A DNA stretch of 64,000 nucleotides from the NCBI GenBank assembly GCA_964527425.1, contig CAZGOA010000001.1:98435-162434 (forward strand), read 5' to 3'. Each line of letters opens with the position of its first letter. The first letter of the stretch is position 1. Shown in pieces: positions 4,171-51,966 of the stretch. The notes beneath the pieces are model-generated. The model ran no database searches and was not told where the DNA came from. It was given only the letters and a program-made list of their open reading frames with translations. A program made the position numbers and the translations under genes. The DNA is from an uncultured Gammaproteobacteria bacterium. Lineage in GTDB: Bacteria; Patescibacteriota; Microgenomatia; UBA10105; UBA927.

Positions 4171-4904
4171 GATTTATGAAGCTGTTGCCAAGGTCGAGTG
4201 AAAAAAAGGCGCCAGAGACCTTCTAAATCTCCTTGTGCTGTTTTTATCACACGAACAGTAGAACCGGGATTATCGATCCACGTTACTGGCTCTTCATAAA
4301 TTCGATATCCTGACTTTTCAGCAACCATTAACAACTCAGTATCAAAAAACCATTCGTTATCTTTTACAGAGGGTATAATATTTGTTACTACTTTGCGGGT
4401 TACTGCCTTAAATCCACATTGTGCATCAGAAAAATGTACAAAGAAAAATAACTTAATCAGGAAAATATATCCCTTTGAAGTAATAGTCCTTAATAATCCA
4501 CGTTTATACACTCTGCTTCCTGATGCGTTTCTTGTTCCTATAGCTATATCATAGCCTCTTAATAACGATCTTACTAATGAGGGAAAGTGCTTTAAATCTG
4601 TAGACAAATCAACATCCATATAGGCTAAAATATCATGATTGCAGTTAGTCCAGACTTTCTTTACAGCTCTTCCTCTACCTTTTTTATCAATATGAATAGC
4701 CTCAACATTTGCTAAATTTTTACTTAATCTTTTTGCTATTGCCAAAGTTTGATCGGTAGAGGCATTATCTGCAATACTAATTGTCCAGTTAAAATCCTCT
4801 AGATGTAACCGCAAATACTCAGCAAGAGTTTTCACACTATCTTCAAGCTCTAGTTCTTCATTATATACAGGGATAACAATGTTAAGAGATGGTTTTTTTG
4901 CCAT
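4167..4904 (-). CDS. GT2 polyprenyl-phosphate sugar synthase (DPM1/GtrB-like)
   Basis: 245 aa. LNIVIPVYNEELELEDSVKTL...ISIADNASTDQTLAIAKRL...YMDVDLSTD. DPM1-like GT2 with a 4-bp overlap onto the downstream flippase gene. Confidence 0.75.
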   Translation of the reverse strand: MAKKPSLNIVIPVYNEELELEDSVKTLAEYLRLHLEDFNWTISIADNASTDQTLAIAKRLSKNLANVEAIHIDKKGRGRAVKKVWTNCNHDILAYMDVDLSTDLKHFPSLVRSLLRGYDIAIGTRNASGSRVYKRGLLRTITSKGYIFLIKLFFFVHFSDAQCGFKAVTRKVVTNIIPSVKDNEWFFDTELLMVAEKSGYRIYEEPVTWIDNPGSTVRVIKTAQGDLEGLWRLFFTRPWQQLHKS

Positions 4905-6540
4905 AAATGTATATTAATACTACCACGAAGACGAAGCTGATCAAATTACCTATTGTTCGAATTGGAGTGTTGGTAAATTTTGCTTCCAAGGTGCTAAAAT
5001 CCCTTGGGATAGTAATCACTGGTTTACCACCATTAAGTATAATAGGCTGCTCTTTTCCATTTACAATATAAATCCATCCCGGAAAATGAACCATCTGCAA
5101 CGTAATTTGTGTTTCGTTCTGGGCCCTAAATTCATACTTCTTAAACGTTTCCTTTTCTGTTATTTGTTTATGAGTAAATATTGGGTTCTCAATAATCGTT
5201 GTGTTTGCAATATCCTCAACTCTCGTTGGCTTCATAAAATCAGGCGGTAAATACTCATCTGATATTTTTGAAACTCTAAATTTTAATTCTTCTTGAGTTT
5301 CAAATTCCGAAACATTTCTATCATATATATATTGTGGACGAGCTAATTCATTACCTTTCCAGTAGATTAACGCTAAAACAATCACTAACAACAACAGTTT
5401 AATTAGTTTCTTTTCAGACAGCATCACTATTCCACCTGCAATAAACGCCATTGGTATCATCATTAATGTCAAAAACCTCCAAGGATACTGAAGATATTCA
5501 AACCTCGGTATTATTTCCCATACAGGTAGTGATATTGAAGTCATTAGGAATAATGAAATAATCCAAATTCCTCCAGCAATAAAAAGAAACTGCTTATGTT
5601 GTGAGAGAGTTGCTTTACTAAATAATATAACTCCCCCTAGTAAGCTTATAATGATAAATGCTTTTCCTAAAGCAAATGATAAACCATCTTGACAGCCTAA
5701 TTGAGAACCTCCAAATCCCCATTGTGAATACCATAATTGAGATAAACATACAAAATGATCACGAAAATCTGCAGTACTACTTACTTGCCCACTTACTGAT
5801 GTATAGTGCATTTCAAATAATGCAGGCATCCAAAAAAATGAAGATATTCCTAAACCAATAACGATGCCCCATAAAATCGTAAAACTAAAATGTGTTAGTT
5901 TAGATGATTTATAGATAGAGAAAAGAAAAACACCTAGCAAATACAACAACAGAATGATTAACGTTACATATCCAAGTAAGGTATGAGACAAAATCGTACC
6001 TGCTAAACCTACGCCTATGAGCAATCTGCTTAACCAATTTTTATGCTTAAAGGATTCATATATTCCTAAACATATTAATGGTAAAAAAATACTAGCCCAA
6101 TATTCTCCTATTGCCCCTCTTACGTATAATTGCACAGAATGATAGGGCATATATACATAAAACACACCTGATATTAATCCACCCATTTTCCCAAATATTC
6201 GAGATGCACACCAATACATGATATATGCTGCAGATAGTATTCCAATTCCAATCATAATTTTAGTAGCAATAAGTCCTGAAAATCCGAAGGAATAAAGAAG
6301 TCCACCAACATAATAAGGAAGAGGACCATAAAAATTAAATAAAGGGTAACCGTATCCATAACCTAAATCACTTACCCAACGCACAGGAAATTGTCCGTTT
6401 CTTAACGCTTTCCCCATAGCAACTACCCTTCCTACCTGTGTATCATCGTGCATAGGAAAAAATCCTGGTGTTGTTAGTATTCTAATTTGCGTCATTATTG
6501 TGAAACAAATAAGAATAAACGCAATAATATGTGTCTTCAT
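4882..6540 (-). CDS. Polytopic membrane protein, GT-C-like glycosyltransferase candidate (paralog A)
   Basis: 552 aa with more than 10 TM helices. The first extracytoplasmic loop carries acidic residues (FFPMHDDTQVGRV) and the motif GQFPVRWVSDLGYGYGYPLFNFYGPLPYYVGGL, which is shared with the next gene. A C-terminal soluble domain follows. Confidence 0.45.
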   Translation of the reverse strand: MKTHIIAFILICFTIMTQIRILTTPGFFPMHDDTQVGRVVAMGKALRNGQFPVRWVSDLGYGYGYPLFNFYGPLPYYVGGLLYSFGFSGLIATKIMIGIGILSAAYIMYWCASRIFGKMGGLISGVFYVYMPYHSVQLYVRGAIGEYWASIFLPLICLGIYESFKHKNWLSRLLIGVGLAGTILSHTLLGYVTLIILLLYLLGVFLFSIYKSSKLTHFSFTILWGIVIGLGISSFFWMPALFEMHYTSVSGQVSSTADFRDHFVCLSQLWYSQWGFGGSQLGCQDGLSFALGKAFIIISLLGGVILFSKATLSQHKQFLFIAGGIWIISLFLMTSISLPVWEIIPRFEYLQYPWRFLTLMMIPMAFIAGGIVMLSEKKLIKLLLLVIVLALIYWKGNELARPQYIYDRNVSEFETQEELKFRVSKISDEYLPPDFMKPTRVEDIANTTIIENPIFTHKQITEKETFKKYEFRAQNETQITLQMVHFPGWIYIVNGKEQPIILNGGKPVITIPRDFSTLEAKFTNTPIRTIGNLISFVFVVVLIYIYGKKTIS

Positions 6541-8150
6541 GCTCTTCTATTTTTAAATACTTTTCTTACTTTTTTTGTACGCTCATGAGGAGATTCATGC
6601 ATTAACATAACTACTTCTTTACGAATCTTCATTTTAATAGACAATGGGATTAGCATTGCTGAAACATATAATAATCCACTAACTATCGATATCATCGTTG
6701 CAATAAAGCGTGGAACTGTTTCTCTAAACTCTGTAATAAGTCTAAATTGTCCTTTAGGAACCGGAAACATAACAACGCCTTTAGGATTATCATAAGTAAT
6801 TGTTACTGGTACTCCGTTTAAAAATACACCCCATCCAGGATAATAAATACTATTGATCTGAATCACACTATCTTCAATTGTTTCGATATTTGCTATCACT
6901 TTATTCGTCGTTATTACAGCATCTTTTATCACTCCTTTACCACTAAAAAACTCGATTTCTGACGACGCTCTTTGACTAGGAAATTCCCTTACCCATCTAG
7001 GCATATATTCATTCGCAACCGTAGTTGATGCTTCATTCGTAGTATAAAATGTTTCTGGCTGATTTGTTCTTTTGATATTTCTATATGTATTAACAAGTGA
7101 TGGTATGAGTAAGACAATACATACAACAATAAATAATTGTTTAAACGGTTTTTGAAGTTTATCAATAGTAATAGCCGTTAGTAATGACCCAATTAGTATA
7201 AGAAGACTTAAGAATCTATATGGGAACTGAAAAAGTCTAGTAAAAGAATCAACTGACCATAGAACTGAAGTAACAGGTAAACTAAGAAATAGTAAAAAGA
7301 CAAAAGAGACAATTAAAAAACGGTATGTAATAGTTTCTTTTTTCCAGTTGAACAATAACACAATAGCCGCTATTACATGTGAGATAGTTATGAGTATCCA
7401 CTGTGAATTTATAGAAAAATACTGAAATGGATCAGAAACGCTAATGGTATCAAAACGAACATATCTTCGCTCAATTAATGCTGGAATCCAGAAAAAACTT
7501 GTTATACCTAGTGCAAGTATTGTTGATATAAAAACGTGAATTCTTCCTCGTACTAATCCATATAAAAAAATAAAAGGCATTGATATTATTGCTACAGAGT
7601 TATGACTTAGAATTAATATAGAAAGAGCCAGAGTAAATAAATGTTGTTTTCGACTTTCTATTGCATACAAAGACATAGATGCCATTGCGATTGCAAGCAC
7701 CTCACCTACAGATCCTCTGCGAAATAAATCAAAACCTAAATAGGGTGATAATAAAAAAGTCAACACACCTACTAAACTTGCAACACTTGTCGTAAATCGT
7801 TTTAACCACAAAAACAAAGCAATACTTGCTATAAGGACAGATCCGATCAAGATTATTTTTATTGTTTCAATAAAAGGAATCCCCAGCACATGAATAAATG
7901 AACCAATGTATAAAAATCCTGGATACAAAAAATTCGCTACAGGATATCCGTAACTATAATTTAACCTTCCTAATAACCGTACTGGAAACTGACCTTCTCT
8001 AAAACTCTGATAAAATGCAGATAGACGTATAATCATCCAATCACCATCATCTGTTTCGATGAAACCTGAACGGAAAAAAGGCCATACTAGTAAGAGACTA
8101 AAACATACTATTAATAATATATATAAAACCAGTTGTTTGGATAACTTCAT
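6537..8150 (-). CDS. Polytopic membrane protein, GT-C-like glycosyltransferase candidate (paralog B)
   Basis: 537 aa. Same architecture and motif as the previous gene: ETDDGDWMIIRL...GQFPVRLLGRLNYSYGYPVANFLYPGFLY. Overlaps the paralog by 4 bp. Confidence 0.45.
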   Translation of the reverse strand: MKLSKQLVLYILLIVCFSLLLVWPFFRSGFIETDDGDWMIIRLSAFYQSFREGQFPVRLLGRLNYSYGYPVANFLYPGFLYIGSFIHVLGIPFIETIKIILIGSVLIASIALFLWLKRFTTSVASLVGVLTFLLSPYLGFDLFRRGSVGEVLAIAMASMSLYAIESRKQHLFTLALSILILSHNSVAIISMPFIFLYGLVRGRIHVFISTILALGITSFFWIPALIERRYVRFDTISVSDPFQYFSINSQWILITISHVIAAIVLLFNWKKETITYRFLIVSFVFLLFLSLPVTSVLWSVDSFTRLFQFPYRFLSLLILIGSLLTAITIDKLQKPFKQLFIVVCIVLLIPSLVNTYRNIKRTNQPETFYTTNEASTTVANEYMPRWVREFPSQRASSEIEFFSGKGVIKDAVITTNKVIANIETIEDSVIQINSIYYPGWGVFLNGVPVTITYDNPKGVVMFPVPKGQFRLITEFRETVPRFIATMISIVSGLLYVSAMLIPLSIKMKIRKEVVMLMHESPHERTKKVRKVFKNRRA

Positions 8151-45459: not shown

Positions 45460-45840
45460 TCAAGGTTTTGTGCTTAATTTCCATTTATCTTCACCATACT
45501 CTATTTGAGGTAAACTCCCAGGAGGCATTGCATTGATAGGAATGTTGAGTAATGCAGAGAGTGTTCTTGCAATTGCAGCTCCGACTCTAAGCCCTGTAAA
45601 AGAACCTGGACCAGTATGAATTGATATTTCCGTAATATCATTTACTGTTTTTTGTTGTTCAGTTAAAAAATCTTCTAGTTCTGGAAGTATCATTTGAGCT
45701 CGATTTTGGACTCCATCTATCTTTTTTTCACTTTTATTTACTCCGTCATCGAGACGAAGAAGCAATTCTGTTGATTTTGAGGAATCTATATACAATGTAA
45801 GCATATTATTTTTACATTCTTGGTATTTTAGTAATTCCAA
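45460..45840 (-). CDS. tsaB: tRNA t6A biosynthesis protein TsaB (YeaZ), unusually short form
   Basis: LTLYIDSSKSTELLLRL is ASKHA-fold N-terminal strand 1. EISIHTGPGSFTGLRVGAAIARTLS is the conserved TsaB GPGSFTGLR motif. Only ~115-126 aa. The start is probably the internal Met (MLTLYID at ~45804), which avoids overlap with tsaE. Confidence 0.6.
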   Translation of the reverse strand: MELLKYQECKNNMLTLYIDSSKSTELLLRLDDGVNKSEKKIDGVQNRAQMILPELEDFLTEQQKTVNDITEISIHTGPGSFTGLRVGAAIARTLSALLNIPINAMPPGSLPQIEYGEDKWKLSTKP

Positions 45841-46267
45841 TAGTATGTCCCTTTTCGGTAATCTGCATCTGAATATCTATTCGGTTTGAAGGTAAAGAAA
45901 ATCCCAATCTATCTGCCCATTCTATGGCAATAATATTATTTGCATCTGTTATTAATTCTTGAAAAGAAATAGATCTGAGTTCTTCTAGTGAAGTGATTTT
46001 ATATAAATCCATGTGGTAAAACATACGATTTTGAGCTAATTCATATAAACGCATTAGCACAAATGTAGGAGATAATAGTCTATCGTTCAATCCTAAACTT
46101 CTGGCGAATCCTTGCAATAATGTAGTTTTTCCGCTCCCTAACTCTCCATATAAAGCTACGATTCGGGCACCATCTACCTGCTGTTTTTGAATGTATGTTC
46201 CTATTTCGTAACCCAAGCTTTGAGTTTCTTCGGGATTCTCGGTAATAAAAGATTGAGGGAAATCCAT
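45812..46267 (-). CDS. tsaE: tRNA t6A biosynthesis ATPase TsaE (YjeE)
   Basis: 151 aa. TQSLGYEIGTYIQ...RIVALYGELGSGKTTLLQGFARSLG is the TsaE P-loop. HMDLYKI and EW motifs are present. Confidence 0.8.
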   Translation of the reverse strand: MDFPQSFITENPEETQSLGYEIGTYIQKQQVDGARIVALYGELGSGKTTLLQGFARSLGLNDRLLSPTFVLMRLYELAQNRMFYHMDLYKITSLEELRSISFQELITDANNIIAIEWADRLGFSLPSNRIDIQMQITEKGHTIGITKIPRM

Positions 46268-46599
46268 GCAAATCCTGCTCCAATTCCATCAATTATAACA
46301 TCTCTTATATGACCTTCACGTGTTGGAACAAATGTTTGATGTAATTCATCAGAGAGACCATATAATACACAGATTAAAAAACTATATATACCTATCCGGG
46401 CTTTATTAACCGTACTTCCGTATGAAAATGCTCTATACGTAAGTACAAAAAGGGTTGCGTATTCTATGACATGCAGTGTTTTAAAAAATACAAAATTCCA
46501 GGCGTATGTTTCTGATACAGAAATCCGTTGTCTGGTTGATAAAAGAAAAATAACTGAAATCAACAGTAATACAGGAATCCAATACTTAATTTTATTCAT
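46201..46599 (-). CDS. VanZ-like membrane protein
   Basis: 132 aa with four TM helices. LSDELHQTFVPTREGHIRDVIIDGIGAGFAW is the VanZ family signature DE.HQ...P.R...D...D..G. Confidence 0.6.
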   Translation of the reverse strand: MNKIKYWIPVLLLISVIFLLSTRQRISVSETYAWNFVFFKTLHVIEYATLFVLTYRAFSYGSTVNKARIGIYSFLICVLYGLSDELHQTFVPTREGHIRDVIIDGIGAGFAWISLNLLLPRIPKKLKAWVTK

Positions 46600-46646: not shown

Positions 46647-47453
46647 TTATACATCTTCGTGTTTTCTGTTACTGATTTGTAAAACTGAAAATAATGAAAG
46701 TATCCCTGCACCTAAGCCAACCAATCCAAACGGAATGATCATATATGCTTTCTGTTGCACCTGGACTGAAGGGGATGCTTCTGTAAATAATACACTACTT
46801 GGAGTAGCATACTGTTGAATATATTCGCCCAATACTGTTTTTTCATTATTTTTATCAGTTACGGATACTTTTAATGGTAGTGTGGTACTTTGTGTTCTGG
46901 ATGGAATTGGAATTTGTGTATTTACGGCAGTTGGTATTAGTGTGGGTGTTTTACTTGGAGATAGAGTAGGTACAGGAGTATTTGTGGGAACATTTGTAGG
47001 TGTTGGTAAGGGTTTTTCTAAATCTATAGATGCCACTGTTTCTGACCAACGCACACTCGATATATCTCCATCTGATGCAAGTGTATAAAATCCTATTTTG
47101 AATTTATAACTGCCATTATCTGTAAATCCAGAATCACTATAATCTGATTTTACAACTAATGTTCCGTCCCACTCTCCTATTATTACCTTACGCTGATTTT
47201 TTGTTGCAATACTATTTTTTATCCAGGTATCTCCATATTTTGTATAGCCAAAATAATTACTCGATCCTTCTTTAAAGAATGCACCTTTGATATACAGAAT
47301 TTCCTCTGGAGTAAATCCAGATGGTGAAGCTATAACGATCAATTCTTGTTCCCCTTCAAGTAGATCAGTTGAAAGAGTAAACGTCATCGATTTTGCGTAA
47401 ATGACTAAGGGTTGTACAAATAATACTAAGATAACGACAAACCATTTCATCAT
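46647..47453 (-). CDS. Secreted surface protein with a Pro/Thr linker and a C-terminal TM anchor (hypothetical)
   Basis: 268 aa. A signal peptide, a beta-rich domain, a PTPTNVPTNTPVPTLSPSKTPTLIPT linker, and a C-terminal hydrophobic helix plus KHEDV tail. No LPXTG motif. Confidence 0.4.
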   Translation of the reverse strand: MMKWFVVILVLFVQPLVIYAKSMTFTLSTDLLEGEQELIVIASPSGFTPEEILYIKGAFFKEGSSNYFGYTKYGDTWIKNSIATKNQRKVIIGEWDGTLVVKSDYSDSGFTDNGSYKFKIGFYTLASDGDISSVRWSETVASIDLEKPLPTPTNVPTNTPVPTLSPSKTPTLIPTAVNTQIPIPSRTQSTTLPLKVSVTDKNNEKTVLGEYIQQYATPSSVLFTEASPSVQVQQKAYMIIPFGLVGLGAGILSLFSVLQISNRKHEDV

Positions 47454-47532: not shown

Positions 47533-48792
47533 TTACACTCTCGTATACGTTACAACATCAATGATATTTCCAATAGAGTAGTAATCTAAATAATTTAGAT
47601 TATATCCTTCCCAAGGATCGTTCATAATATAGCCATTAGAACCTTTAGAGGTGAGTACTAAAAAATGTTTTCCTTCTGAATTATTAGTTACAATTATTTC
47701 TACAACGACAGGTCTTCCTTCAGATAGTTCACTATCAATTTTACTTATATTTCTACCATATTTCGTCCATTTGAACCCTGATTGTGCAGGCCAAGGAATT
47801 AACATCCAAGATCTAAAAAAATATTGGGGTTGTTGAGCTATTACGCCTGGATTTGTATCAGAACCATTTTTTTTATGTAACATAGCTACTGAAGTTACTA
47901 AACATCCATATTGCCACATAAAACTTGGACTGTTACTCCAACAAGAAGATCCAATACATTGACTTCCCCATCGTTCATCGCGCTGATTAAAATACCAACC
48001 GTCTGGCTGAGGCTGAGCAGGTATAATTCCACCTTTACCTTTTCCTGTAACGAACGCCCGAAAGGCATTTTGTTGTGCCAATGCTTGAGCGAGCAATCGT
48101 TGATAGGTTGCAGCGTCATTTTTGGTTTGTGTAAGTAGTGTTTGTTTTGCTCTTTTTTTTAATTCTAATTCTTTACTTTCTTTTTCTAAATCTATTTGCA
48201 GCTGTTCTTGCTGTTGTTTTTTAGTTTCTCTTAAATCTTTTCTTTCTGAGAAATTATTTTGTGTTGCTTTTAGTTGAAATAATAATTGCGCATCGTCTTC
48301 TTGAACATTGCTGATATATTTTATTCGATGAAGCATATCTGAAAAATTTTCACTTAATAGTACATTTCCAAATTGCGGTGTTTGTGCCCGTTTATAACTC
48401 TCAGGAATACGACGTATCACTAATTCTGAACGTCTCGTTAAAATGGATTCTAATCGCACAATTTCTCCAGCAAGCTCTCCTATTTCATTGTTTATTTTGT
48501 CTATGGCTGATTTAATGGATTCTATTCGAAGCTGAGTAACACTCATTTGTGAGTCTAATAAACCAATTTCGGAAGAAAGCGAATTTTGCTGACCTTGTAA
48601 TTCGGTAATTTTTCTTTGCAACTCTGCAATGTTTGCTTGTGATGATGATGTGGGTGTAACACTAGCTGATGGAGTAGCTGTTTGCGCATGAACTTTACCA
48701 ATCTGCAGGCTAACAGCGAATACAAACGCACCTATCAACCCGATTAAAACGAGGCAGAGAGTCTTATTATTCTCATAAAATTCAACATTCAT
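47533..48792 (-). CDS. PcsB-like peptidoglycan hydrolase: N-terminal coiled-coil plus C-terminal CHAP/NlpC-P60-like cysteine peptidase domain
   Basis: 419 aa. A signal/TM helix, then ~200 aa of heptad-rich sequence (ELQRKITELQGQQNSLSSEIGLLDSQMSVTQLRIESIKSAID...). The C-terminal domain has a candidate catalytic Cys (GCLVTSVAML) and downstream His/Asp residues. It lies directly downstream of ftsE-ftsX. Confidence 0.55.
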   Translation of the reverse strand: MNVEFYENNKTLCLVLIGLIGAFVFAVSLQIGKVHAQTATPSASVTPTSSSQANIAELQRKITELQGQQNSLSSEIGLLDSQMSVTQLRIESIKSAIDKINNEIGELAGEIVRLESILTRRSELVIRRIPESYKRAQTPQFGNVLLSENFSDMLHRIKYISNVQEDDAQLLFQLKATQNNFSERKDLRETKKQQQEQLQIDLEKESKELELKKRAKQTLLTQTKNDAATYQRLLAQALAQQNAFRAFVTGKGKGGIIPAQPQPDGWYFNQRDERWGSQCIGSSCWSNSPSFMWQYGCLVTSVAMLHKKNGSDTNPGVIAQQPQYFFRSWMLIPWPAQSGFKWTKYGRNISKIDSELSEGRPVVVEIIVTNNSEGKHFLVLTSKGSNGYIMNDPWEGYNLNYLDYYSIGNIIDVVTYTRV

Positions 48793-48793
48793 C

Positions 48794-49690
48794 TTACATT
48801 TTAAGATATCTATTTACTGCACTATAGCTTCCTATACATCCTAACAAATATCCAAATGTTGTAAGTACTGCAAAAAAACCTAATGCTGATAGTATAAATA
48901 ACGATCCTGAAGGATTACTTAATAAAGCATTCATTACAGGAACTACTCCTAAAAAAGTTAATAATGCTTCTCTAGCATACAAAACAAGTGCAATAATCAC
49001 AAAAAAGGCAATCATTCCTCCCAGCGCCCCATAAAATCCTCCTTCTATTATAAACGGAGAACGAATATACCACCTTGAGGCACCTACTAATCTTAATATT
49101 TCAATTTCTTCTTTACGCAGTGCAATTTTCATACTTGTTATGGTTAGAATGATCAATACAGCATTTACCGCTAATATTCCCACTAATGCGCCTAAAACAA
49201 TTCTGATTCCACGAGTCCATTTTAGGAGTGATTCAACCACGTCACGCTGGAATACTACTTCTTCTACACCTTGTGCCTGTTTTATTATTGGTTCGATTTC
49301 CGTTAAGTACTCAGGAGCAAGCGGCATAATTTCTAGTGATGCAGGTAAAATATCTGCTGTAACCATTTCCAGTAACAATGGATCATTTTTATTTTGCTCT
49401 TGATACAGTAATAATGCGTCCTCTTTAGAAATAAATTTTGTATTGCTTACCATTCCCGTTTGTTCTAACGTTGCAACCAGGGCATCTGCTTCTGTTTTTC
49501 CTGCTCTATCAGCAAAAAATACGGTAATCTGTGGTTTTCCCTCAAAATATCGCAGCATTTCAATTGATGCCATTGATGTAATCCCAAAAATACCAGCAAG
49601 TAACAGAGTAATAAACATCGTTAAAACAGCTCCTATTGTTTGATAGGGTGATCGTCTTATATGTTTCCAGCTTGTTTTAAATGCTTTCAT
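48794..49690 (-). CDS. ftsX: Cell division permease FtsX
   Basis: 298 aa. An N-terminal cytoplasmic segment, TM1, a large extracytoplasmic loop, then three C-terminal TM helices. RLVGASRWYIRSPFIIEGGFYG is the conserved FtsX motif. Confidence 0.8.
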   Translation of the reverse strand: MKAFKTSWKHIRRSPYQTIGAVLTMFITLLLAGIFGITSMASIEMLRYFEGKPQITVFFADRAGKTEADALVATLEQTGMVSNTKFISKEDALLLYQEQNKNDPLLLEMVTADILPASLEIMPLAPEYLTEIEPIIKQAQGVEEVVFQRDVVESLLKWTRGIRIVLGALVGILAVNAVLIILTITSMKIALRKEEIEILRLVGASRWYIRSPFIIEGGFYGALGGMIAFFVIIALVLYAREALLTFLGVVPVMNALLSNPSGSLFILSALGFFAVLTTFGYLLGCIGSYSAVNRYLKM

Positions 49691-49712
49691 AAGAATGTTG
49701 ATTGCTGACTAA

Positions 49713-50402
49713 TTAACGCTTTTTGATTTCTGTATATTTCCCCTGTTGTTCATCTTTTATGATTTTTCCGTCATGTATAGTAATAGTACGCTTTTTTAGA
49801 AGATTAACGAGTTCTACATTATGGGTGGTCATAATAATCGTTGTACCTAATTTATTAATTTCTTGCAGAATTGTTAGTACATTCCATGCATTTTCTGGAT
49901 CTAAATTTCCGGTTGGCTCATCGGCTAGTAAAATTTTAGGACCCATCACCATTGCGCGAGCAATACTGGTCCTTTGTAATTCGCCGGCTGATAACTGTAT
50001 TGGGAATTTATTTGCTTTATCTGTCAAACCTACAAGCGATAATGCATCAGCAACTTCTTTTTTGACCGAGTTTGGTTTTTTGCCTAAAATTTCTAACGCA
50101 ATCGCCACATTTTCATACACTGTTCTATCTGGAAGTACTTTAAAATCTTGAAAAATCATCCCAACTTTCCGTCTTAAGTGATGAATTTTGTGTCTTGGTA
50201 ATTTATGAAGCTCCCAATCATCAATAATTACTTTGCCTGCTGAGGGGATCATATCTCTAATCATTAAACGCAAAAGAGTAGTCTTTCCTGCTCCTGATGG
50301 TCCGATAAGAAAGACAAAATCACCGTCTGGAAAAGTGACAGTTATATCAGAAAGCGCCGCATGGGTCGCGTAATGTTTGGAGACGTTAATAAATTGAATC
50401 AT
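49713..50402 (-). CDS. ftsE: Cell division ABC ATPase FtsE
   Basis: MIQFINVSKHY...GPSGAGKTTLLRL (Walker A)...LSAGELQRTSIARA (signature)...LLADEPTGNLD (Walker B). The start is chosen at MIQF, giving an ATGA overlap with the upstream gene. The longer ORF start at 50468 is less likely. Confidence 0.85.
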   Translation of the reverse strand: MIQFINVSKHYATHAALSDITVTFPDGDFVFLIGPSGAGKTTLLRLMIRDMIPSAGKVIIDDWELHKLPRHKIHHLRRKVGMIFQDFKVLPDRTVYENVAIALEILGKKPNSVKKEVADALSLVGLTDKANKFPIQLSAGELQRTSIARAMVMGPKILLADEPTGNLDPENAWNVLTILQEINKLGTTIIMTTHNVELVNLLKKRTITIHDGKIIKDEQQGKYTEIKKR

Positions 50403-50896
50403 TCCGTTTGAACTTTCCCTACATCCATGAACCAGGAAACATTGCGGGCTGCCATTGTCTGACCCCACACTGTTACCTTTTGTCCAATAAATTCGTCTAA
50501 ATCAACAACTGATGAAGTCATATACATAGTTTGAGAAGGTCCACCTTCTCGAATAAGCTTATGTGTTCCCTCTCCATCAAAACCCCCAGCTTCTACTATT
50601 CCCGTAGCTGAATCTGAAAATGTTTCACTATCTGAAATACCTACAGTCTTTTTACCATCTGCTGTTTCAGTTACGGAAACACCTGTGTTTGTTTGAGCGG
50701 TAGCGCCATTTCGAGACAGTACATATCCAGTAATCACACCAAACACAACAAGAACAATAAATATTCCATATACAACCGGCTTAATTTCTTTTTCCTCTTC
50801 TTTTTCTTCATCTAAAGAACGAACTGGGTCTAGCTCACTATCTGACAGTTGCGCAGTATTCTCAGGAGGCTGTTTAGTTACGTTTTTGGGTACCAT
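50399..50896 (-). CDS. Hypothetical membrane-anchored protein
   Basis: 165 aa. An acidic N-terminus, one TM helix (VVYGIFIVLVVFGVITGYVL), and a Thr/Gly/Ser-rich extracytoplasmic tail. Confidence 0.3.
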   Translation of the reverse strand: MVPKNVTKQPPENTAQLSDSELDPVRSLDEEKEEEKEIKPVVYGIFIVLVVFGVITGYVLSRNGATAQTNTGVSVTETADGKKTVGISDSETFSDSATGIVEAGGFDGEGTHKLIREGGPSQTMYMTSSVVDLDEFIGQKVTVWGQTMAARNVSWFMDVGKVQTE

Positions 50897-50913: not shown

Positions 50914-51966
50914 CTATGACATCAGTTTCAAGTATGCCAAGATGAAATCTTCAATATTGCCATCTAGGACGCGATCTGAGTTACTTGTTTCATGCTCCGT
51001 CCGCGTATCTTTTACTAAATGATAAGGATGAAGTACGTATGAACGAATCTGGTTTCCCCATCCTGGAGTTTTATACTCACCCCGCATGTGTTTTTCTTGT
51101 TTTAATCGTTCTTGTTCTGCAATTTCCCATAATTTTGCTCTCAGCAGCTTTAATGCAGATTCTCTGTTTTGTCCTTGCTGTCTTTCTGCCTGGCTCGTTA
51201 CAACTAAGCCACTTGGTTTATGTCTAAGACGCACGGCTGTAGACACTTTGTTGACGTTTTGTCCGCCTTTTCCACCACTTCTATAGAACTCCCATTCTAA
51301 TTCATCTTCTTTAATACTAACGCCTGCATTATCATCAACTACCGGTAACACTTCCACCATAGAAAATGATGTCTGCCGTAAATTATCTGCATTAAATGGA
51401 GATTGTCTTACTAATCTATGAACCCCCGCTTCTGCTTTTAAAAATCCATAGGCATATTCTCCAGTGACTGTAATTGTGACACTTTTAATGCCTGCCTCTT
51501 CACCTGGTGTGTAATCTATTTCTTCTTGTGTCCATCCTTTTTGCTCGATGTATCTAGAATACATTCTAAATAACATAGAAGTCCAATCCATCGCTTCTGT
51601 CCCACCTTGTCCAGCATGAAGGGCTAATATTGCATCTCCACTATCGTATGGTCCAGATAAATACAAGGCAAATTCCATTCTCTCTAACTCTTTTATTACC
51701 TCGTCTTCATTTCCTTCTTCTATCATAAGTTGCAGCATTTCAGCTTCTTCTATTTGTTTTTGAAGATTTGCAATTCTTTTCATTACTTTTGCAGCCTGTT
51801 CATGTGCTTGCCAGAACTCTGGTTTACTACTTTCAATTTCTAAATCTTGAACCGTACGACGCTTTCCTTCTGGATCAAGCTTATGTAATACTGCAAGAGC
51901 TCTTGTTTTAATTTCCTCAGTCATGGGATAATTGTAGCATAGGATCAATCTTTCTGACTGACCCAT
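50914..51966 (-). CDS. prfB: Peptide chain release factor 2
   Basis: SPF tripeptide (RQSPFNADN), which is RF2-specific. GGQ motif (SGGKGGQNVNK). LHAGQGGTEAMDW. The reading frame is continuous, so there is no programmed +1 frameshift. The likely true start is MTEEIKT at ~51924. Confidence 0.85.
   Translation of the reverse strand: MGQSERLILCYNYPMTEEIKTRALAVLHKLDPEGKRRTVQDLEIESSKPEFWQAHEQAAKVMKRIANLQKQIEEAEMLQLMIEEGNEDEVIKELERMEFALYLSGPYDSGDAILALHAGQGGTEAMDWTSMLFRMYSRYIEQKGWTQEEIDYTPGEEAGIKSVTITVTGEYAYGFLKAEAGVHRLVRQSPFNADNLRQTSFSMVEVLPVVDDNAGVSIKEDELEWEFYRSGGKGGQNVNKVSTAVRLRHKPSGLVVTSQAERQQGQNRESALKLLRAKLWEIAEQERLKQEKHMRGEYKTPGWGNQIRSYVLHPYHLVKDTRTEHETSNSDRVLDGNIEDFILAYLKLMS

Follow-up and report, generated by a model that had tools for sequence, protein, structure and literature searches.

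The locus analysed here raises the question of whether a secreted protein encoded directly behind ftsE and ftsX is a cell-wall hydrolase under the control of FtsEX, and to which family its catalytic domain belongs. The original prediction had described ftsE and ftsX followed by a PcsB-like protein with a coiled coil and a head resembling CHAP or NlpC/P60 peptidases. The window, that is the whole stretch of DNA analysed, is 64,000 nucleotides long. We consider it probable that the locus encodes an FtsEX module for cell-wall hydrolysis in a small-genome bacterium of the Microgenomates (Patescibacteria), with peptidoglycan cleavage and FtsX binding as its presumed activities. FtsEX-controlled wall hydrolysis is a central division mechanism, so far elucidated only with partners of the LytM, CHAP and NlpC/P60 types.

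An ORF check placed ftsE, ftsX and the ORF of 419 amino acid residues on the minus strand, in the order and at the positions predicted. The ftsE gene, encoding the 229-aa ABC ATPase of the division mechanotransducer, spans 49713..50402. Its start codon is the ATG at 50402; the GTG of the listed ORF lies 22 codons too early, since the alignment with TIGR02673 begins at residue 23 of that ORF. The ftsX gene (48794..49690) encodes the permease-like partner of 298 aa. Only 1 nt separates the ftsX stop codon from the start of the 419-aa ORF (47533..48792), which encodes a secreted coiled-coil protein with a C39-like cysteine peptidase domain, the presumed FtsEX-controlled cell-wall hydrolase. Immediately upstream of ftsE is a gene for a conserved single-pass membrane protein of 165 aa, here called TM165 (50399..50896, minus strand), and the ftsE start codon shares the sequence ATGA with the stop codon of this gene. 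The conserved gene run begins with a peptide chain release factor gene (50914..51966, minus strand), which matches Pfam PCRF and RF-1 and is of the RF2 type, with the SPF motif visible in its translation. A programmed frameshift in this gene was rejected, as one ORF covers all its domains and the region near the start shows no CTTTGAC motif. Downstream of the 419-aa gene lies a gene for a membrane-anchored, Pro/Thr-rich surface protein, found in only some of the related loci. A scan for operon promoters and terminators gave counts at or below those of shuffled sequence. No second coiled-coil paralogue was detected within the window by tblastn.

FtsE passed the equivalog cut-off of NCBIfam TIGR02673 (275.2 bits, cut-off 264.85) and matched Pfam ABC_tran with an E value of 1.4e-33. 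Its nucleotide-binding motifs are intact: Walker A GPSGAGKT, the signature LSAGE, Walker B LLADEPT and the H-loop. From these motifs FtsE is predicted to be an ATPase-competent ABC protein. FtsX passed the Pfam thresholds of FtsX_ECD (57.3 bits) and FtsX (33.6 bits). A hydropathy scan gave four hydrophobic segments, with an extracytoplasmic domain of approximately aa 47-159 between helices 1 and 2. The NCBIfam FtsX models matched with E values of about 1e-48, yet the score of 165 bits was under the curated equivalog cut-offs of 225-255, which marks the FtsX of the window as divergent.

The 419-aa protein contains one N-terminal hydrophobic segment (aa 8-34, by hydropathy scan) followed by VHA/Q, the predicted cleavage site of a putative signal peptide of aa 1-36 (48685..48792, minus strand). 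Most of 44 homologues likewise have an N-terminal hydrophobic segment and then A-Q. The predicted coiled coil of about 200 aa was borne out by the AlphaFold2 model of the protein (pLDDT 86.7). In the model, aa 48-251 (48040..48651, minus strand) form three helices at aa 48-137, 150-223 and 227-251. The first two are long and antiparallel, so that most of the helical region is a two-helix hairpin, and the third helix has 25 aa. The tip of the hairpin, at approximately aa 133-159, bears the invariant residues Tyr133 and Tyr159. When the coil was searched with Foldseek, the top match was EnvC in the V. cholerae FtsEX-EnvC complex solved by cryo-EM (8tzl_E, E 1.4e-4). PcsB (4cgk) and EnvC bound to the FtsX domain (6tpi) were also among the top matches, and RipC of the FtsEX/RipC complex (8idc_E) was a weak structural match at rank 23 (E 0.05). 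The model and these matches indicate that the hairpin is of the PcsB/EnvC kind.

Profile searches located the same region. Pfam CC_PcsB matched aa 112-181 of the window protein at 22.1 bits, below its threshold of 27; at the level of the family, it matched 33 of the 44 members (E<=0.01). The NCBIfam models of EnvC and PcsB gave weak matches over aa 39-240. The EnvC model (NF008644) scored 31.1 bits against a cut-off of 270 and covered the coil alone, while the PcsB model (NF046104) scored 29.6 bits against a cut-off of 450. The 419-aa protein is therefore not a PcsB orthologue. Thus the PcsB-like architecture and gene order of the original prediction hold for the coil and for the position behind ftsX, and orthology with PcsB does not.

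Coiled coils yield many spurious low-level matches, here with DotF, spanin, ATG16 and SMC, and the protein might accordingly be an unrelated surface coiled-coil protein which merely neighbours ftsEX. Conservation of the locus makes this reading highly improbable. Relatives of the 419-aa protein were found in 366 species-level genomes, and those with informative names are Microgenomates; many of the relatives are named 'CwlO-like' in the JGI annotation. Of 73 related loci with enough flank to be informative, 69 have ftsX directly upstream (<=300 nt) and 3 others have it upstream within 1.4 kb, or 72 of 73 in all, which indicates that the arrangement of ftsX and hydrolase is not due to chance. 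The synteny spans many candidate phyla of Microgenomates, and the full gene run from the release factor gene is kept in 55 of the 73 loci. The 1-nt spacing in the window, the structural matches with proteins solved in complex with FtsX and the recurrence of CC_PcsB in the family argue in the same direction.

The remainder of the hydrolase is a compact domain of approximately aa 260 to 419 (47536..48015, minus strand), modelled by AlphaFold2 with pLDDT above 90. Of the original description of this head, the peptidase fold and the catalytic residues stood, while the resemblance to CHAP or NlpC/P60 did not. No match to NlpC/P60 was detected in the window protein with Pfam at E<=0.1, and none to Peptidase_M23. 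C39 had been listed as one option for the profile comparison, and Pfam Peptidase_C39_2 (PF13529) matched aa 286-394 at 27.8 bits, above the gathering threshold of 24; the head is neither CHAP nor NlpC/P60. The same profile matched 43 of the 44 homologues. Peptidase_C39 proper (PF03412) scored 16.5 bits, below its threshold of 22.

The motif GCLVTSVAML occupies aa 296-305. Within its invariant G-C-L is Cys297 (codon 47902..47904), the presumed catalytic cysteine. His376 (codon 47665..47667) is the presumed catalytic histidine and is matched by the His in the C39 peptidase domain of ComA; Asp392 (codon 47617..47619), in an invariant D-P, is presumed to be the third catalytic residue and aligns with the DP of ComA. 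The codon positions of these three residues, all on the minus strand, were verified, and the matches with ComA residues come from the profile alignment. Gln270 (codon 47983..47985, minus strand) lies in an invariant QRD..W motif and is a candidate for the oxyanion-hole residue, a role assumed by analogy with the Gln-Cys-His-Asp pattern that C39 and papain peptidases show. None of the four residues varied among the 44 diverse homologues. Judged from its sequence and fold, the head is assigned to the papain-fold cysteine peptidases of the C39-like group (Peptidase_C39_2), with the catalytic set intact.

This invariance bears on another reading, in which the head, like the degenerate LytM domain of EnvC, has no catalytic activity and acts as a regulator that switches on a separate hydrolase. 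In its favour, the coil has its best structural match in EnvC, and FtsEX partners can be activators instead of enzymes (PMC11627006). However, EnvC has lost its metal ligands (PMC11627006), whereas the window protein and its homologues retain all four residues. We regard a purely regulatory head as very unlikely and the head as probably catalytic.

The closest solved fold of the head is the C39-type cell-wall lysin PeiR, and a B. anthracis C39-like peptidase (3erv) and C39 bacteriocin peptidases are also among the nearest; sequence identity with the PeiR and 3erv structures is only 18-20%. Toxins, CdiA-CT for example, are close in fold as well. Among viral structures, the best matches bore the names tail tape measure and phi29-type morphogenesis hydrolase, and a tblastn search of deposited phage genomes with the head gave a single weak match. 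Those C39 peptidases among the matches that have been characterised biochemically cut Gly-Gly leader peptides. With these peptidases and toxins among its neighbours, the fold alone leaves the substrate undecided. An exhaustive profile search found the same C39-like subfamily in multi-domain proteins beside Phage_lysozyme2, Glucosaminidase and NlpC/P60. A word-indexed search for the head fused to peptidoglycan-binding domains found none and returned short or stand-alone C39_2 proteins only.

Comparison of the related loci showed that the head is exchanged between lineages. On a coil very similar to that of the window protein, the heads of close relatives at this locus are either M23 or of a second C39 type. 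In locus L081 the slot is filled by an M23 head, and L013 has M23 and C39 heads in tandem; in the M23-headed relatives the HxxxD and HxH motifs are intact. A sliding-window comparison placed the crossover at approximately aa 220-250, and the conserved segment TKNDxATYQ.LL.QA is the predicted junction. The higher the FtsX identity, the higher was the coil identity and the lower the head identity, and coil and head identity were negatively correlated (Spearman correlation -0.57, p 1e-7). The window protein is a mosaic of a vertically inherited, FtsX-matched coil and a head like that of distant Microgenomates genomes. The catalytic head is an exchangeable cassette, swapped between lineages as M23 and two C39-like types. 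A simple unequal deletion between tandem M23 and C39 paralogues was rejected as the origin of the gene. The tandem C39 copy of L013 is of the other subtype, with 31% identity to the window head, so the window head must derive from a type A lineage.

These swaps bear on what the head cuts. The head could be a protease that processes proteins or peptides outside the cell, maturing a surface protein, a pilin or a Gly-Gly leader, tethered to FtsEX and cutting no peptidoglycan. Among the matches, the C39 domains of bacteriocin type (ComA, PCAT1) belong to ABC exporters, in which they work on the cytoplasmic side, whereas the window domain is secreted on a coil of the PcsB/EnvC type. Moreover, Peptidase_C39 proper stayed below threshold, close relatives fill the same slot with M23, a family of cell-wall endopeptidases, and the subfamily of the head co-occurs with lysozyme, glucosaminidase and NlpC/P60 domains. 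A processing protease is thus unlikely, though of the alternatives it is the least so.

Somewhat less probable still is an offensive lysin directed against the wall of a host or neighbour cell, and not a division hydrolase. This would fit the epibiotic lifestyle of some cultivated Patescibacteria, and the exchange of heads recalls the modular turnover of lysins and toxins. Structural neighbours include cysteine proteases of contact-dependent inhibition or type VI effectors (8ssm, 9l5u, 9jdd). However, the gene is nearly always within the ftsEX operon, and its coil and FtsX vary together. An immunity-like gene is not evident at the locus. The downstream surface-protein gene is present in some loci only. 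A cell-wall hydrolase controlled by FtsEX is the most probable reading.

Such a hydrolase would work as follows. FtsE and FtsX would together form the mechanotransducer known from other bacteria, and the hairpin would dock on the extracytoplasmic domain of FtsX through its conserved tip. Either the coil, against which the head would rest, or the third helix (aa 227-251) may keep the head inactive. ATP-driven movements of FtsEX would then free the head at the division site, where it would cut the peptide stems or cross-links of peptidoglycan and allow the daughter cells to separate. The combination of a vertically inherited coil with heads swapped between M23 and two C39-like types supports a generic activation by FtsEX, in which the head is released whatever the chemistry of the enzyme. 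The head swaps are thus a natural experiment on FtsEX activation.

TM165 is a possible extra component of this system. Its gene lies between the release factor gene and ftsE in most of the related loci, L081 included, and the protein is highly conserved in a C-terminal domain of about 80 aa. TM165 matched no Pfam or NCBIfam family, and its family profile found no relative among PDB sequences. More tentatively, and with more doubt than belief where all parts are taken together, the C39-like endopeptidase on its PcsB/EnvC-type coil would be a fourth class of FtsEX client, with which Microgenomates carry out cell separation, the M23, C39 type A and C39 type B heads would be freely exchanged by recombination at a conserved junction, each coil remaining matched to its own FtsX, and TM165 would be a further subunit. 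The locus shows the same FtsEX scaffold combined with a different catalytic family throughout the large uncultivated lineage Microgenomates. For the study of division in very small cells, it offers the coil tip, Cys297 and TM165 upstream as targets.

Among known systems, the FtsEX partners given in a review of FtsEX have LytM, CHAP and NlpC/P60 domains only. A literature search on FtsEX with C39, Patescibacteria or the candidate phyla radiation returned nothing relevant, and we did not find a C39-like head described as the catalytic domain type of an FtsEX partner. C39-type domains are known from other settings. PeiR, a provirus-encoded pseudomurein lysin with pseudomurein-binding repeats, is an experimentally active cell-wall lytic enzyme with a catalytic domain classed as C39 (PMC6189367). 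Domain N5 of mycobacteriophage lysin A matches the same B. anthracis C39-like peptidase (PMC3314691), 3erv, which is a putative peptidase. Unlike the window protein, PeiR, N5 and 3erv have no coiled coil or FtsEX link in their cited descriptions. The C39 domains of ComA and PCAT1 belong to ABC exporters and cut Gly-Gly leaders, whereas the window protein is secreted and is not fused to an ABC transporter; compared with them, its head has about 15 extra residues inserted between Gln and Cys.

FtsEX-EnvC of E. coli, V. cholerae and P. aeruginosa, with AmiA/AmiB, is similar in its coil (8tzl_E, 6tpi), and the short third helix after the window hairpin occupies the position of the EnvC restraining arm. 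EnvC has a degenerate, inactive LytM domain and acts through amidases (PMC11627006). In contrast, the window head retains its full catalytic set, as the M23-headed paralogues in relatives retain HxxxD/HxH. FtsEX-RipC of M. tuberculosis and FtsEX-CwlO of B. subtilis are alike in joining a coiled coil to a cysteine peptidase head, which FtsEX controls directly there. Their heads are NlpC/P60, unlike the C39-like head of the window protein, and the long Pro-rich linker of RipC (PMC11627006) is absent from the latter. FtsEX-PcsB of Streptococcus pneumoniae is alike in that the secreted partner has a coiled coil at the N-terminus and a cysteine hydrolase of papain fold at the C-terminus, and PcsB interacts with FtsEX directly via its coiled coil (bioRxiv 10.1101/2025.05.23.655736). 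The match of the window coil with 4cgk agrees with this likeness, and the CC_PcsB match falls on the hairpin tip. PcsB proper differs in its CHAP head, the window protein being C39-like and under the PcsB equivalog cut-off. As in the PcsB model, the window enzyme itself, and not an activator, would be the client of FtsX.

Six closely spaced, co-directional ORFs lie on the minus strand of the window, and comprise a release factor gene with an RF2-type SPF motif (50914-51966), the gene of a 165-aa single-pass membrane protein (TM165; 50399-50896), ftsE (49713-50402), ftsX (48794-49690), an ORF encoding a 419-aa protein (47533-48792) and, after a gap of 80 nt, the gene of a 268-aa Pro/Thr-rich protein (46647-47453). 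The GTG start listed for ftsE is too early; the alignment to the FtsE model begins at residue 23, at an ATG (50402) that overlaps the TM165 stop codon. FtsE scored 275 bits, above the NCBIfam equivalog cut-off of 265, and its Walker A, signature, Walker B and H-loop motifs are all intact. FtsX exceeded the Pfam thresholds for both FtsX_ECD and FtsX, and four hydrophobic segments were found in a hydropathy scan. It scored under the curated NCBIfam FtsX cut-offs and is therefore divergent. The gene of the 419-aa protein starts one base past the ftsX stop codon, directly downstream of ftsX as in the original prediction.

The 419-aa protein has a hydrophobic N-terminal segment (aa 8-34) followed by VHA/Q, which looks like a Sec signal peptide. 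In an AlphaFold2 model run with 44 homologues (mean pLDDT 86.7), helices at 48-137, 150-223 and 227-251 are followed by a compact domain whose pLDDT exceeds 90. Searched against the PDB with Foldseek, the model matched EnvC of the V. cholerae FtsE/FtsX/EnvC complex (8tzl_E, E 1.4e-4), PcsB (4cgk), EnvC bound to the FtsX periplasmic domain (6tpi) and, more weakly, RipC of the FtsEX/RipC complex. The Pfam CC_PcsB match spans the hairpin tip (aa 112-181) and scored 22.1 bits, under the threshold of 27; this model was found at E≤0.01 in 33 of 44 family members. Tyr133 and Tyr159, on either side of the tip, are invariant in the homologue alignment.

The C-terminal head (aa 260-419) is a member of Pfam Peptidase_C39_2 (27.8 bits, threshold 24), as are 43 of 44 homologues, and it does not belong to the bacteriocin-processing C39 family proper. 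The C-terminal domain had been likened to CHAP/NlpC-P60 peptidases, with a comparison to C39 proposed; the cysteine-peptidase head and the C39 comparison held, while no CHAP or NlpC/P60 match was obtained at E≤0.1 in the Pfam search. With the head sequence profile, the ComA C39 peptidase domain (E about 4e-3), 3erv and PeiR were matched in the PDB, and Foldseek aligned the modelled head with the PCAT1 C39 peptidase domain, a papain-like toxin and the C70 protease AvrRpt2. His376 and Asp392-Pro393 align with the catalytic His and Asp-Pro of ComA. Gln270 (QRD..W motif), Gly296-Cys297-Leu298, His376 and Asp392-Pro393 show no variation across 44 sequences with identity down to 33%, and the head thus looks catalytically competent. 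Cys279 and Cys284 (47941-47958, minus strand) form a C-I-G-x-x-C pair within an insertion separating the conserved Gln from the catalytic Cys. The pair occurs in heads of the window's subtype (type A) that share this longer insertion, whereas most others lack it; a disulphide between the two cysteines of the secreted head is possible.

With one genome per species scanned, relatives of the 419-aa protein turned out to be encoded in 366 genomes. The best 80 are metagenome-assembled genomes, and the informative names among them are Microgenomates (Woese-, Levy-, Gottesman-, Roizman-, Shapiro- and Amesbacteria). Many of the related records (L001-L080) carry generic or evidently wrong titles, such as 'uncultured Gammaproteobacteria' or 'Pseudomonadales', which look like placeholder or wrong taxonomy; gene order and protein similarity fit Microgenomates genomes. 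At the 73 loci with sufficient upstream sequence, ftsX lies immediately upstream (≤300 nt) of the hydrolase gene in 69 and within 1.4 kb in three more, and only L068 is without ftsX nearby. The predicted gene order with ftsEX is thus held in relatives, and at 55 of the 73 the run is complete, from release factor through TM165, ftsE and ftsX to hydrolase.

Judged from sequence comparison, the 419-aa protein of the window is a mosaic, with a head that is exchanged as a cassette. In the first protein search, its coil (aa 48-251) was 50-65% identical to coils of Peptidase_M23-headed proteins, and the whole protein was no more than about 35-47% identical to most coil-plus-C39 proteins. The closest relative (L013, FtsX 62% identical) has tandem coil-M23 and coil-C39 genes after ftsX (4654-7179), with very similar coils and a C39 head of the second subtype (type B), and another close relative (L081, FtsX 59% identical) has a coil-M23 gene alone at that place (6001-7170). 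The HxxxD and HxH motifs are intact in the M23 heads of relatives. The nine closest C39-bearing genomes share 51-62% identity with the window in FtsX, 38-60% in the coil and 31-35% in the head; their heads are of the second subtype, with the motif CNDWGCYYNQRDSQW. The corresponding values for loci L001, L002 and L003 are 38-40%, 32-33% and 56-64%. In a sliding window the identity switches at about aa 220-250, where the segment TKNDxATYQ.LL.QA is kept in all variants. At 72 loci taken together, FtsX identity to the window correlated with coil identity at rho +0.37 and with head identity at rho -0.27, and coil and head identities were anticorrelated (rho -0.57, p 1e-7). Full-length homologues (P0001-P0006) share 65-81% identity, which shows that the mosaic recurs within a small clade and did not arise from misassembly.

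All evidence on the substrate of the head is indirect. PeiR is a methanogen cell-wall lysin with experimentally shown activity and a catalytic domain classed as C39 (PMC6189367). The B. anthracis C39-like peptidase 3erv is also matched by domain N5 of mycobacteriophage lysin A (PMC3314691), and Peptidase_C39_2 figures in surveys as one of the enzymatically active domains that phage lysins carry (PMC8223927, PMC13284279). An exhaustive search of 1.84 billion cluster representatives with the head profile gave 104 at E≤1e-30, a number that rose to 1704 at E≤1e-10. Within the best 150, 109 measure 370-525 aa and end in the domain, consistent with the coil-plus-head architecture, and 10 are longer than 1000 aa. 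Two of four scanned long proteins contain three copies of the C39-like domain together with other wall hydrolase domains: Phage_lysozyme2 in P0454 (3691 aa), and Phage_lysozyme2, Glucosaminidase and NlpC/P60 in P0497 (1905 aa). Proteins of 4200-5500 aa with 3-4 copies were also retrieved. The viral proteins with the best structural matches are named as a tail tape measure and a phi29-type morphogenesis hydrolase.

TM165 consists of an acidic N-terminal tail, a single membrane helix and a strongly conserved C-terminal domain of ~80 aa with the invariant pattern EGTHxLxRxGGPSQT..SS..DLD..W..T..W.MDVG; no relative was found in Pfam, NCBIfam or PDB. Its gene sits between the release factor gene and ftsE in most related loci, and a role as FtsEX cofactor, on the lines of SweC/SweD in B. 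subtilis, is possible for TM165. The 268-aa protein, encoded directly downstream of the hydrolase gene, is secreted; it has a linker rich in Pro/Thr and is anchored to the membrane at its C-terminus. It is kept in a subset of related loci only; the equivalent position in L081 encodes a 285-aa product with a weak lamin-tail-domain match.

Further downstream are genes for VanZ (46201-46599) and TsaE (45812-46267), which share 67 nt (minus strand, region 45460-46599), a short TsaD-family fragment and a pterin dehydratase. The fragment, a 126-aa ORF after TsaE, matches only positions 29-84 of a TsaD/TsaB-family profile with 264 positions; this points to a TsaB-like protein of very small size. MgtE-N/CBS, Nramp, RuvCAB and DsbA-like proteins are encoded upstream on the opposite strand. 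Positions 1-44000 (minus strand) form one co-directional run of about 44 kb, in which surface-glycan synthesis genes predominate: rhamnose-pathway-type enzymes, UDP-glucose dehydrogenase, more than ten GT2/GT4 and two PMT_2 glycosyltransferases, a flippase-type protein, a polysaccharide deacetylase and an APH-family kinase-like protein. At 28-34 kb the GC content drops to 0.28, compared with 0.33-0.39 elsewhere.

If the solved FtsEX-EnvC and FtsEX-RipC complexes and the PcsB model (PMC11627006) are a guide, the hairpin tip would bind the extracytoplasmic domains of FtsX, and the coil or the third helix would keep the head inactive. ATP binding and hydrolysis by FtsE would then free the head, whose targets at the septum would be peptide stems or cross-links. 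A release mechanism independent of enzyme chemistry fits the observed pattern, in which the coil follows FtsX and heads of unrelated chemistry take each other's place.

Membership in the PcsB, EnvC or NlpC/P60 families was ruled out by failed equivalog or domain tests. A 2024 review of FtsEX lytic partners describes LytM, CHAP and NlpC/P60 heads without the term C39 (PMC11627006), and full-text literature searches combining FtsEX with C39, Patescibacteria or candidate phyla radiation returned nothing relevant. Relatives are named 'CwlO-like' (JGI) and 'C39 family peptidase' (NCBI); these names point to both halves, so the proteins have not gone unnoticed. Coil-plus-C39 proteins appear to be undescribed, though named in databases. 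The likeness to FtsEX-PcsB, -CwlO and -RipC would lie in the enzyme itself being the direct client of FtsEX. EnvC shares its coil fold with the 419-aa protein, but its LytM domain is degenerate (PMC11627006), whereas the head encoded in the window is seemingly competent for catalysis.
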